Below, piece after piece: positions 1 through 48,899 of a stretch of DNA of 64,000 nucleotides. Location of the stretch: IMG/VR virus record IMGVR_UViG_3300023178_004374. One strand, given 5' to 3'. The translations under genes and the position numbers were made by a program. This DNA comes from an uncultured virus (IMG/VR IMGVR_UViG_3300023178_004374). Its lineage: Duplodnaviria > Heunggongvirae > Uroviricota > Caudoviricetes. Position 1 is the first letter of the stretch. Each line of letters opens with the position of its first letter. Under the pieces are notes generated by a model. The model saw only the letters and a list, made by a program, of their open reading frames with translations, had not been told where the DNA came from and did no database searches.

Positions 1-391
1 GAGCATCAAAATGAGGATGAACTCCTGCTTGAGACTCATCATGAGGATAATTTTGAACAATATATCGATTTGTATCTTGCCATCCCCAATCCCATCCATC
101 AAAAGCTAGATCACAGATCTCAGATAACACTGGTAAAATTTTTTCATTGATAATTGGATTATCTAAAGGTGTATGAGACCAGAAATATGACCATTCAATA
201 TCATTTAATATATTAACTCCGTTGTCACGTTCTTCATGCAAACGTAAGTAATTATACCATCCTTGTTTTGATTGACCAATAGAAGGGTCTAATTTACTAG
301 CCATTTCATTAAGAGATGTAATGTCTTCTTCGTTAAATAATTTATCAGAAATAACATATCCTCTATCGTGAAATATATTCCAATCTATCAT
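1..391 (-). CDS. Phytanoyl-CoA dioxygenase (PhyH)-like 2OG-Fe(II) oxygenase, partial (runs off window)
   Basis: Manual translation MIDWNIFHDRGYVISDKLF...GVHPHFDA; F-x3-GYV N-terminus and HxD motif; ATG overlaps upstream stop (TAATG). Confidence 0.65.
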   Translation of the reverse strand, partial: MIDWNIFHDRGYVISDKLFNEEDITSLNEMASKLDPSIGQSKQGWYNYLRLHEERDNGVNILNDIEWSYFWSHTPLDNPIINEKILPVLSEICDLAFDGWDWGWQDTNRYIVQNYPHDESQAGVHPHFDA

Positions 392-10783: not shown

Positions 10784-10860
10784 TGGTCTCGGAGGAGAGA
10801 TTTGAACTCCCGACCCTTTGGTCCCAAACCAAATGCGCTACCAGCCTGCGCTACTCCGAG
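10784..10860 (-). tRNA. tRNA-Pro (UGG)
   Basis: CTCGGAG/CTCCGAG acceptor stem, TT-TGG-GA anticodon loop, GTTCAAATC, encoded CCA. Confidence 0.95.
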
Positions 10861-11383
10861 ATACTACCTCATTTGCATTGATATTAAATGAGATAATTGT
10901 TTTTCTTTTCTTCGATTCATTTGGTGCTGATCTATGACGATATACAGCAGGAAATATAATTATATCACCTTCTGTAACTTGTGGTGTTATTACTTCACGT
11001 GTGATAGGCATTTGCATTTGAGTAGAAGGCCCATCTTCTGGTAATTCAATATAATATACAGCATTCCAAAAACTTCCTGGATGAACGTGCCAAGAATGAG
11101 TATCTTTAGTTTCATATTGTTGAAACCAAGCATTTTTAATACTCCAACTATCAGGTAAAAGCTTTTCAGTAATAATAGGTTCAAGCTCTTGAAAGATAAT
11201 TGGTCCTACAAAATTCCAATATGCTTGTGGCTGCCCACCTGAGTGATGCCAATCAGTATTTTGAATTTTATCTTGTCCTTCAAGAATATTTCCTGATGGA
11301 GTACTAGCTATCATTTCAAGTAAAGTGTCTTTTACTTCCAAATGTCGTTTAAATTTAATTGTTAGAATCATATTATTTTTCAT
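10838..11383 (-). CDS. Putative 2OG-Fe(II) oxygenase
   Basis: WFQQY..HSWHVH, AVYY, EGDIIIFP..YRH, ISFN; 3' end overlaps tRNA-Pro. Confidence 0.8.
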   Translation of the reverse strand: MKNNMILTIKFKRHLEVKDTLLEMIASTPSGNILEGQDKIQNTDWHHSGGQPQAYWNFVGPIIFQELEPIITEKLLPDSWSIKNAWFQQYETKDTHSWHVHPGSFWNAVYYIELPEDGPSTQMQMPITREVITPQVTEGDIIIFPAVYRHRSAPNESKKRKTIISFNINANEVVSRSSAGW

Positions 11384-11390
11384 TTGTTTT

Positions 11391-11467
11391 TGGCGATCAC
11401 GGAAGGACTCGAACCCTCAACCTGCTGATTAGAAGTCAGCTGCTCTATCCAGTTGAGCTACGTGACC
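11391..11467 (-). tRNA. tRNA-Arg (UCU)
   Basis: GGTCACG acceptor, CT-TCT-AA loop, GGTTCGAGTCC, CCA. Confidence 0.95.
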
Positions 11468-11469
11468 AT

Positions 11470-11554
11470 TGGTACCTCCGACCGGACTCGAACCGGTACG
11501 CCTCTAGGCGAGAGATTTTAAGTCTCTTGTGTCTACCTATTCCACCACGGAGGC
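11470..11554 (-). tRNA. tRNA-Leu (UAA)
   Basis: GCCTCCG acceptor, CT-TAA-AA loop, long variable arm, GGTTCGAGTCC, CCA. Confidence 0.95.
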
Positions 11555-44816: not shown

Positions 44817-45032
44817 TCATTTTTTTTGCATAAAAGTTTCAGCTTCTCTTTTTTTCCAAGCAGCTTCAAATCCAATTTCACCATACTCAGCTCTTTCACA
44901 GTTTCCCCATAGTCTTTTCATATAAGAATTGTAGGTACCTTCTACTTCTTCGTCGGAAGCTTTAGGATTTATTAGGTGGCCTTTTACTAACCAGTGTAAT
45001 CGGTTAGCTTCTTTCCGCATCCAAGGCGTCAT
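44817..45032 (-). CDS. Hypothetical protein
   Basis: AGGAG RBS, 71 aa. Confidence 0.65.
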   Translation of the reverse strand: MTPWMRKEANRLHWLVKGHLINPKASDEEVEGTYNSYMKRLWGNCERAEYGEIGFEAAWKKREAETFMQKK

Positions 45033-47537: not shown

Positions 47538-47918
47538 TTAGAATGAGAATGCAACCCCTACAGTGGTGTTACCAAACTCTAAATCTGCATCAGTGCTAAC
47601 TTCCCCATAAGCACGGAGTCCATCAAAAAGCTGATAACCAACTTCAAAATCTAATCCTTCAAAGATGTCGTCGCCACTATTTAGCTCTAAAACATCAAAA
47701 GTACTAGATACTTTAAAATCAGTTCCCCATGCTTTCCAACCAGCGTGTGGTTCAAATTCCATTGACCATTCTTCGACGCCGGTTTCATAGTTTGTATCTA
47801 CTGTAGCTCCAATAGACAACGTTTGTCCTAGTACACCGATGTCAGCTGCTTCTGCTTCTTCTGCTGCGCAAGCAGCTAACGTAATTGCCGATACTGCGGC
47901 TAATGCTGCAATTTTCAT
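47538..47918 (-). CDS. Small outer-membrane beta-barrel protein
   Basis: Signal peptide, amphipathic strands, C-terminal VGVAFSF BAM signal. Confidence 0.7.
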   Translation of the reverse strand: MKIAALAAVSAITLAACAAEEAEAADIGVLGQTLSIGATVDTNYETGVEEWSMEFEPHAGWKAWGTDFKVSSTFDVLELNSGDDIFEGLDFEVGYQLFDGLRAYGEVSTDADLEFGNTTVGVAFSF

Positions 47919-47949
47919 TTTTCTTCCTTTACTATTTCTGTGCGAATTC

Positions 47950-48250
47950 ACCACTTTTCTGTTGCTAGGTAAGTGGCCAACCCCCTGTGTTATGCTGCTA
48001 GAGCGTAACCAGATGGTGCAAAGTTATCGTTTGCATTTGATTTTCGTAGACTCAAATACCAGTCGATCCTATTTCAGCCCCATCAAAAACACTTCTAATA
48101 AACTTCCAAATAGTACAATTACCAATCCGTACTGTACAAGTCTCAATGACAAATATGTAACTATATCACTCATTTCATTCTCCAAGTGTTTATGGTGGAG
48201 CTGCGCGGTACCGCCCCGCGGTCCTGAATACCCTCTAACATCTACTTGTT
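47950..48250 (-). ncRNA. ssrA: Two-piece, circularly permuted tmRNA (alphaproteobacterial type); ends approximate
   Basis: Acceptor piece ends ...GGACCGCGGGGCGGTACCGCGCAGCTCCACCA (48193); coding piece starts GGGGCTGAAATAGGATCGAC (48081); G3:U70 pair; tag ANDNFAPSGYALAA* at 48034-47990. Confidence 0.93.
48069..48173 (-). CDS. Putative 34-aa hydrophobic peptide in the tmRNA intervening segment
   Basis: GGAGAATGAA-ATG; MSDIVTYLSLRLVQYGLVIVLFGSLLEVFLMGLK*. Confidence 0.5.
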   Translation of the reverse strand: MSDIVTYLSLRLVQYGLVIVLFGSLLEVFLMGLK

Positions 48251-48280
48251 TATTTAACCACATATCCCAAGGATTGTAAA
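48251..48280 (-). promoter_or_regulatory. tmRNA promoter (early-type -35)
   Basis: TTTACA-N17-TTAAAT with TGTGG; -10 deviates from consensus. Confidence 0.55.
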
Positions 48281-48358
48281 TGGCTAAAAATTATTTTTTT
48301 ATACTGTGATATAATTATCACTTTGCCAGTACTATCATCATAGGCAACGTATTTTGAA

Positions 48359-48745
48359 CTATTCTTGTACTTCCGTATCGTGTATGTAGAGTTGGATGAG
48401 GGCATAATGTAATACCTTCAAAAGATCCTTTCTTGCATCAGCGGCAGTACCTTTTTTACCGTAGCGCTGAGCATATTTTAATACATTACCCATACAAAAT
48501 CCAGTACCATGTCCACCATCTATAATAAATTCTGTAGCTTGAAATTTATCTTTAGCATAATGAGCATCATAAGTTGAGTCAATGTATTTTTTAAATTCTT
48601 CAATAAGAGCACCTTCATTAAACTTGTAATCGGTGCTTTCACTAACAAATGTAAGAGTAGGTCCCCAATCTTTATAGTCTTCAAAATCTGACGTATCAAT
48701 TGTTATTGTTTGTCCTAGACCTACGCTTGAGTCTCCGTTTTCCAT
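48359..48745 (-). CDS. DUF3310-like protein (T7 gp1.7/SaV-related nucleotide kinase-like)
   Basis: HY..., GFCMGNVLKYAQRYGKKG, DLLKVLHY. Confidence 0.75.
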   Translation of the reverse strand: MENGDSSVGLGQTITIDTSDFEDYKDWGPTLTFVSESTDYKFNEGALIEEFKKYIDSTYDAHYAKDKFQATEFIIDGGHGTGFCMGNVLKYAQRYGKKGTAADARKDLLKVLHYALIQLYIHDTEVQE

Positions 48746-48899
48746 AACCAAGTTCCTTCATTATTTTCATTCTTTGCTCATGTGAATAATTAATCCACTG
48801 AGATATTTGCTCAATGGTTCTGTCACACCCATGACATTTCTTTGTTTCTTTATCAATTCGACAAACACCGATACAGGGTGTAACATATAAGTACTCCAT
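48696..48899 (-). CDS. DUF1289 family protein
   Basis: PCIGVC...CHGCDRT.EQI..W. Confidence 0.8.
   Translation of the reverse strand: MEYLYVTPCIGVCRIDKETKKCHGCDRTIEQISQWINYSHEQRMKIMKELGYGKRRLKRRSRTNNNN

Follow-up and report, generated by a model that had tools for sequence, protein, structure and literature searches.

A candidate small protein gene nested in the intervening segment of a two-piece phage tmRNA gene

The spacer that separates the two pieces of a permuted tmRNA gene is treated as discarded sequence, and annotation follows that view. The locus described here raises the question of whether such a spacer can house a protein gene, from which RNA this gene would be translated, and whether its translation would have consequences for the tmRNA itself. 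The permuted two-piece tmRNA genes of Alphaproteobacteria were reportedly described by Keiler et al. in 2000. Genes of this type occur in Alphaproteobacteria and in marine phages, such as Methylophilales phage Melnitz, according to the available portions of PMC9004378 and PMC11915505; the latter, in the part available, defines the intervening segment (IVS) as the sequence that is absent from the mature tmRNA.

The DNA analysed, hereafter the window, is a stretch of 64,000 nucleotides from an uncultured virus (IMG/VR IMGVR_UViG_3300023178_004374). The phage is a T4-like marine myovirus, and the window encodes a DnaB-like helicase, an endolysin-type cell wall hydrolase, a thymidylate-synthase-like ORF and tRNAs. 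The helicase is 68% identical to that of Phage C48C1 (Kyanoviridae), the nearest named phage by this protein, in which a permuted tmRNA was not found; the nearest virus record has 78% of the window's sampled words. Three phage tRNA genes, Pro-TGG, Arg-TCT and Leu-TAA, are clustered at 10784..11554 on the minus strand.

The minus strand at 47946..48283 is a permuted, alpha-type two-piece tmRNA gene. It is matched by the Rfam models tmRNA_permuted (RF04321) at 48245..47990, minus strand, with 87.2 bits (cut-off 47), and alpha_tmRNA (RF01849) at 48283..47946, minus strand, with 72.1 bits (cut-off 50), while an ARAGORN run on the window did not report a tmRNA gene. The parts of the gene, together with the elements found in its spacer, are the following, in the order of transcription.

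48193..48245, minus strand: acceptor piece, the 3' half of the tRNA-like domain with the T arm and an encoded CCA, from the RF04321 and RF01849 alignments
48082..48192, minus strand: intervening segment (IVS), 111 nt
48184..48191, minus strand: 5' strand of the IVS closing helix (AAACACTT)
48180..48183, minus strand: Shine-Dalgarno sequence (SD) GGAG, 6 nt before the ATG and directly 3' of the helix strand
48069..48173, minus strand: 34-codon ORF with its TAG, for a hydrophobic, single-helix-like peptide
48087..48094, minus strand: 3' strand of the IVS closing helix (AAGTGTTT), overlapping ORF codons 27-29
47946..48081, minus strand: tmRNA coding piece, behind a putative RNase P cut at 48082/48081

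The acceptor piece reads ...CTCCACCA at its 3' end, the last A being 48193, and the coding piece begins at G 48081 (GGGGCTGAAATAGGATCGAC). In the acceptor stem, GGGGCTG (48081..48075) pairs with CAGCTCC, which is followed by ACCA (48203..48193); the stem includes the G3-U70 pair and is also formed in the predicted fold. The tag frame, from GCA 48034 to TAA 47990, gives ANDNFAPSGYALAA, with the hydrophobic ending of the ..LAA type being present. From G1 to the tag stop, the coding piece measures 92 nt in the window, against 127-133 nt in four of six family relatives and 99 in L343, and the extra sequence that the relatives have before the resume codon is replaced in the window by a short hairpin. 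The usual pseudoknot may be missing from the window's tmRNA.

Regarding the spacer, GGAG(A) is located at 48183..48179 (minus strand) and is followed by two start codons, the first of which (ATG 48178) yields only M-K-stop, while the second (ATG 48173) opens the ORF of 34 codons. The stop, TAG 48071..48069, lies inside GAAATAG of the mature tmRNA, the ORF overlapping the coding piece by 13 nt (48081..48069), and the putative RNase P cut falls in codon 31, with 13 nt remaining up to the last base of the TAG. An earlier note on this DNA, made from the letters alone, had pointed out the GGAGA, the ATGs, the 34-codon ORF, the TAG and the 111-nt spacer, and every one of its coordinates proved correct on the minus strand. 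It had also called the peptide single-TM-like, in agreement with a Kyte-Doolittle 19-residue mean of up to 2.14; by its hydropathy, the 34-aa peptide probably forms a single membrane helix, and as a working guess it could be a small membrane protein with the envelope of the infected host as its site of action.

Neither Pfam nor PHROG matched the 34-aa peptide, the protein atlas had no usable match, and searches of 50,697 phage records with the tmRNA region (blastn) and with the peptide (tblastn) returned nothing. By exact look-up, the protein collection contains the 64-aa extended form alone (P0001, 22 contigs) and not the 34-aa ORF. This longer ORF (48069..48263, minus strand), which starts at 48263 inside the acceptor piece, was rejected as the true gene; its extension is not conserved, because L258 and L343 carry a stop 6 nt before the ATG.

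Relatives of the ORF were gathered by a scan for the tmRNA 5' motif and by a scan with the back-translated peptide. They form a family of seven distinct sequences with 65-85% protein identity, seen so far inside tmRNA spacers alone: all of the loci matched in the peptide scan (10/10) are of this kind, and so are L120 and L343. As their homologs all lie in spacers, a tmRNA-linked role is possible for this family. In the alignment of homologous spacers that the earlier note had proposed, all seven distinct members have 34 codons, the ATG is kept, the frame relative to the tmRNA is unchanged and the TAG occupies +11..13. The spacers are 111-112 nt long, the sole 1-nt difference being located upstream of the ATG, and the SD is GGAG, 6 nt before the ATG, in 6/7 members and GGGA in L120. 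The out-of-frame lengths and the missing RBS or ATG that the earlier note had named as refuting its idea were not seen in these homologs.

The dN/dS comparison that had also been proposed was carried out on six sequences (window, L252, L253, L120, L257 and L258), as the seventh, L343, was found later. For codons 2-26, outside the RNA-constrained part, the 15 pairs have a mean pS of 0.599 and a mean pN of 0.176 in the ORF frame, and in the other frames this relation vanishes or is inverted, with pS/pN of 0.365/0.249 in frame +1 and 0.154/0.289 in frame +2. The variable columns at codon positions 1, 2 and 3 are 14, 8 and 20 of 25, respectively. As far as the aligned codons can tell, these comparisons show that the peptide sequence is under purifying selection, and the 34-codon ORF is very probably a real protein-coding gene. 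The IVS is conserved above both mature tmRNA pieces in 18/21 family pairs; between the window and L252, for example, the identity is 89% in the IVS versus 72% and 67% in the mature pieces. A spacer that is better conserved than the tmRNA body hints at exchange.

For the origin of the transcript, the surroundings of the tmRNA gene have to be considered, which comprise two co-oriented genes and a promoter-like element.

48359..48751, minus strand: upstream co-oriented gene, DUF3310, PHROG 480
48252..48280, minus strand: promoter-like element, TTTACA (48280..48275), 17 nt, TTAAAT (48257..48252), a weak consensus match
47538..47918, minus strand: downstream co-oriented gene, 126 aa from ATG 47918, with a signal-peptide-like start

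The TTTACA-N17-TTAAAT site aligns with TTGACA-N17-TATAAA of L120 and of phage Melnitz, and it was not called by the promoter scan; as a weak lead, transcription from this element would begin near the first base of the acceptor piece. No terminator was predicted between the tmRNA and the downstream gene. Given the co-oriented neighbours, the lack of a predicted terminator and the weak promoter-like site, the tmRNA precursor is likely to be the mRNA of the ORF. The product of the downstream gene has no Pfam or PHROG family, and near-identical copies of the gene (94-100%) were present in 5/6 viral contigs found; its C-terminal ..GVAFSF end is reminiscent of an outer-membrane beta-barrel. As for RNA data, none of the 24 listed runs contained half of the window's sampled words. 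Contigs of four runs align for the most part with the conserved tag region and seem to derive from many organisms; their exact matches end at 47979 and resume at 48284, the spacer being uncovered at identity, and such contigs cannot reveal RNA ends.

The pairing of the spacer ends, which the earlier note had also described, turned out to be general. The 8-bp closing helix has at least 7/8 pairs in 86/91 of the unique viral spacers of at least 28 nt listed, against 39% in a null with mismatched ends, and in 44/68 bacterial spacers, against a null of 0.12, with several pair types occurring at each helix position. The window spacer folds as a long hairpin (-24.3 kcal/mol, z -2.5 versus shuffles), the GGAG being unpaired in the predicted precursor fold. 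Since the spacer folds better than its own shuffles, some constraint at the RNA level is possible. A conserved RNA structure inside the spacer was considered and rejected, as the six relatives share the closing helix alone, their consensus fold having -10.4 kcal/mol and a covariation term of -0.6.

In order to place the window among other tmRNA genes, two samples of viral contigs were surveyed, the counts of which are samples and not a census. Sample 1, obtained with the pattern GGGGNNGAAATAGGATCGAC, has at least 120 loci, 114 with a spacer (106 unique); of its six loci without a spacer, most are truncated on the upstream side, and in one the CCA is 294 nt distant. The spacers of sample 1 have a median of 84 nt, and among the matches listed there are 45 unique spacers of at least 95 nt, 32 of which have a sense ATG-ORF covering at least 70%, against 3/45 in antisense and 139/2250 dinucleotide shuffles with a comparable ORF. 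Sample 2, obtained with the ..GAACTAGG.. variant, also has at least 120 viral loci, 116 of them with a spacer (94 unique and new). It contributed 29 spacers of at least 95 nt, with a sense ORF in 17/29 listed, against 4/29 in antisense and 112/1450 dinucleotide shuffles. When both samples are joined, a sense ORF is present in 49/74 of the unique spacers of at least 95 nt listed and an antisense ORF in 7/74, the shuffles giving 6-8%. The spacers are interrelated, the 49 ORFs corresponding to 24 families in an all-against-all BLASTP and not to 49 independent events; a membrane-like stretch is found in 7 of the families.

These ORFs start at a median spacer position of 20, and 36/49 have a 4-nt SD core upstream. 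Within the other spacer-ORF families the length differences are multiples of three, and the pS/pN values are 0.64/0.16 for L041/L100, 0.44/0.06 for L075/L091 and 0.375/0.04 for L118/L123. The canonical ANDN...AA tag frame is kept by 44/49 of the ORF-bearing tmRNAs, so that they look like working tmRNA genes and not like wrecks. The survey shows that in phage tmRNA genes of the permuted alpha type spacers are often enlarged and occupied by one predicted small ORF.

As a bacterial control, the pattern of sample 1 was applied to genome contigs, giving 120 loci with 106 unique spacers. Their median is 30 nt and their maximum 83 nt, and no gene-sized ORF was found among these resolved spacers, in contrast to the window, whose spacer houses a conserved gene. 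Of the 14 unresolved bacterial loci, 12 have their closest CCACC-type end at a distance of 6-55 nt upstream, and the other two are truncated. Among the long viral spacers listed, 25/74 have no ORF, for example those of L016, L021, L025, L055 and L105, and look structured. The ORF-less long spacers are richer in G+C (mean 0.41 vs 0.32, sample 1), and no Rfam family was found inside the spacer in the 20 that were scanned.

Concerning the nature of the cargo, 20 spacer ORFs were scanned against Pfam and PHROGs. The only Pfam match was that of L127 (336-524, minus strand), whose ORF belongs to DUF6356 with 46.2 bits (cut-off 24.4); the corresponding protein cluster has 229 members without a functional name, seven of them labelled 'hypothetical protein' or with gene-caller coordinates. 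No PHROG family was assigned to 19/20, L080 having two weak matches with E above 1e-3, and neither search found a homing-endonuclease or maturase domain among the 20. Two families are also present outside spacers: the spacer ORF of L011 is 42% identical (E 5e-11) to a free-standing 71-aa ORF of the window (44817..45032, minus strand), and gene 85 of Melnitz, located immediately upstream of the Melnitz tmRNA, is a homolog of the L041/L100 family with 52% identity. The free-standing occurrence of these two cargo families supports the idea of a permissive slot for ordinary small phage genes.

It is thus considered likely that a small protein gene is nested in the IVS of the phage tmRNA gene, the spacer being a site that accommodates ordinary small accessory genes of phages, translated from the precursor. 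The peptide would be translated from the unprocessed tmRNA precursor, probably while this is still under transcription, from an ORF whose start lies some 20 nt inside the spacer, right behind the 5' strand of the closing helix, and which continues up to or across the 3' strand. While terminating at the TAG (48069), a ribosome would sit over the closing helix and the coding piece's first bases, so that a given molecule could either be translated or form its acceptor stem and thereby be cut by RNase P, but not both at once. Once the ribosome is gone, the RNA would fold and be processed into mature tmRNA.

Mixed tRNA-mRNA transcripts are known from tRNA operons that contain a protein gene and from the tRNA region of phage T4, with its small ORFs. 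As proposed here for the tmRNA precursor, one primary transcript is both an mRNA and the precursor of a stable RNA cut by RNase P. Unlike in those transcripts, the window ORF is situated between two pairing halves of one RNA and overlaps the mature molecule by 13 nt.

The tmRNAs of Alphaproteobacteria and of Melnitz, a phage cultured on Methylophilales H5P1, share with that of the window the order of acceptor piece, spacer and coding piece, the tRNA-like core, the type of tag and the closing helix. The spacer of Melnitz also opens with the same TAAACACTTGGAGAA, behind which an ATG ORF extends into the phage's tmRNA. In the Melnitz genome (MZ577097, L248), this is an unannotated ORF with SD and ATG at 1805-1969, entering the mature tmRNA, with the tmRNA feature at 1693-2145, and it resembles the ORFs of L090, L282, L313 and L318 (..PKYLSG.. 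family). The record has no CDS annotated inside the tmRNA, and the locus tags 87 and 88 are absent. The available portions of the Melnitz paper (PMC9004378) describe a tmRNA with a glutamine riboswitch and contain no mention of the spacer ORF.

Other cargo of tmRNA genes has been reported, namely T-loop group I introns, some of them with LAGLIDADG homing endonuclease genes, and, in spacers, one tRNA-Ala gene and one repetitive element (PMC11915505, in the part available). Like the spacer genes, the intron, tRNA and repeat cargo described in that part is extra material in a portion of the tmRNA that is removed. In comparison with the introns covered there, the cargo of the spacers consists of small proteins without an endonuclease domain, and the processing is of the tRNA type and not self-splicing. 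Protein genes in tmRNA spacers were not reported in the literature searched, including the available text of PMC11915505, PMC9004378, PMC4383926, PMC10117765 and PMC11590407, an earlier mention being possible. The gene-in-spacer habit of marine phage tmRNA genes is widespread and apparently undescribed.

A further-reaching reading, which is unlikely, takes phage two-piece tmRNA precursors as dual-function RNAs, in which the spacer is dedicated to expression, the translation of the cargo competes on every molecule with maturation by RNase P and the stops located in the mature tmRNA create a self-timed, arfA-like circuit. If this were true, maturation would turn the message into a non-stop substrate of the tmRNA that has just been released, and the peptide would be made only in an early interval or when trans-translation is saturated. 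The message of arfA has no stop codon and is subject to repression by trans-translation (PMC10107115, in the portion available). The likeness to the arfA case as given in that portion is that an endonucleolytic cut before the stop would produce a non-stop substrate of tmRNA; the difference is that the non-stop arrangement is the regulatory principle of arfA, whereas among the spacer ORFs it is found in 20/49 and varies within a family.

The earlier note had argued that only the precursor encodes the full peptide, and indeed the ORF extends past the RNase P site, with its stop in the mature tmRNA, in 7/7 family members. Since the stop of the window's family lies beyond that site, a cut at G48081 would leave the SD and ATG with no stop, and the cleaved spacer RNA of the window would be a non-stop substrate of trans-translation, like the arfA mRNA. 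From this geometry an arfA-like sensor could be derived, as the earlier note did: RNase P would remove the stop, ribosomes stalled on the cleaved RNA would be rescued and the peptide would be tagged for degradation, which is improbable as an explanation of the locus; it is equally improbable that the level of the peptide reports the balance between precursor and trans-translation capacity. The position of the cut inside codon 31, kept in all seven distinct members of the window's family, is what would be expected of such a sensor.

The positions of the stops across the spacer ORFs argue against it. Among the 49 spacer ORFs, the stop lies within the spacer in 29, of which 14 use the TGA of the ..TGAT leader and 15 stop farther upstream, and within the mature tmRNA in 20, of which 13 use the TAG at +11..13 and 7 terminate at +30..42. 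In the largest family (8 members) the ORFs end at -12, -7 and +42, and those that reach the 3' end use the three frames in a ratio of 14 : 13 : 7, with no clear preference for the loss of the stop. Moreover, the TAG belongs to the tmRNA 5' motif GGGGNNGAAATAGGATCGAC, which was required by the search pattern and is also found in 120 bacterial loci without a gene-sized spacer ORF. As each frame that enters the conserved 3' end meets a fixed stop, a stop in the mature tmRNA appears as a by-product of the reading frame. Thus, the non-stop geometry stands for the window's family and does not extend to the spacer ORFs overall. As a general design the feedback sensor is not borne out, with most stops inside the spacer and a cargo of 24 mutually unrelated families, two of them also free-standing, which agrees better with a slot for genes than with a dedicated sensor; for the window's own family it is possible.

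Another unlikely alternative is that translation itself is the function, the ribosomes holding the helix and the acceptor stem open and so timing or throttling the maturation of the tmRNA in step with the translational capacity of the cell, with the peptide being secondary. It would account for a layout that is constant across different cargo, with the SD placed right after the 5' helix strand, or within the strand itself in some families, and the start near position 20. In addition, 49/49 ORFs end at most 15 nt before the end of the spacer or beyond it, so that a terminating ribosome would always reach the 3' helix strand. However, a secondary peptide is at odds with the purifying selection on amino acids in every family tested and with the cargo families that are also free-standing genes, and the tight packing of ORFs that is normal in phage genomes explains the layout without regulation.

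That the region is not a gene, being a chance frame in AT-rich sequence or owing its conservation to spacer RNA structure, is highly improbable: the ORF is very short and lacks a database family, the window spacer has the fold z of -2.5 and a comparable ORF arises in 6-8% of shuffled spacers, but the synonymous excess is frame-specific, the frame, length, SD and ATG are kept at 65-85% protein identity, the closing helix alone is conserved as structure, and sense ORFs outnumber antisense ones by 49 to 7 among the matches listed.

If the spacer ORFs are ordinary small phage genes translated from the tmRNA precursor, a hidden class of phage small proteins would be added, and the locus would provide a naturally occurring case of a single RNA with the two obligatory roles of messenger and precursor of a structured RNA. 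It would also represent a simple system for the competition between translation and RNase P, with Melnitz, on OM43, as the cultured case. Regarding annotation, a tmRNA finder set up for short spacers can overlook genes of this kind, and the start of the ORF is misplaced by gene callers. The spacers of L075, L091 and L102, read by eye, apparently contain two overlapping conserved ORFs in different frames, one of 23-25 aa from about position 14 and a membrane-like one of 44 aa from about position 42-48, and L102 carries an in-frame 6-nt indel.
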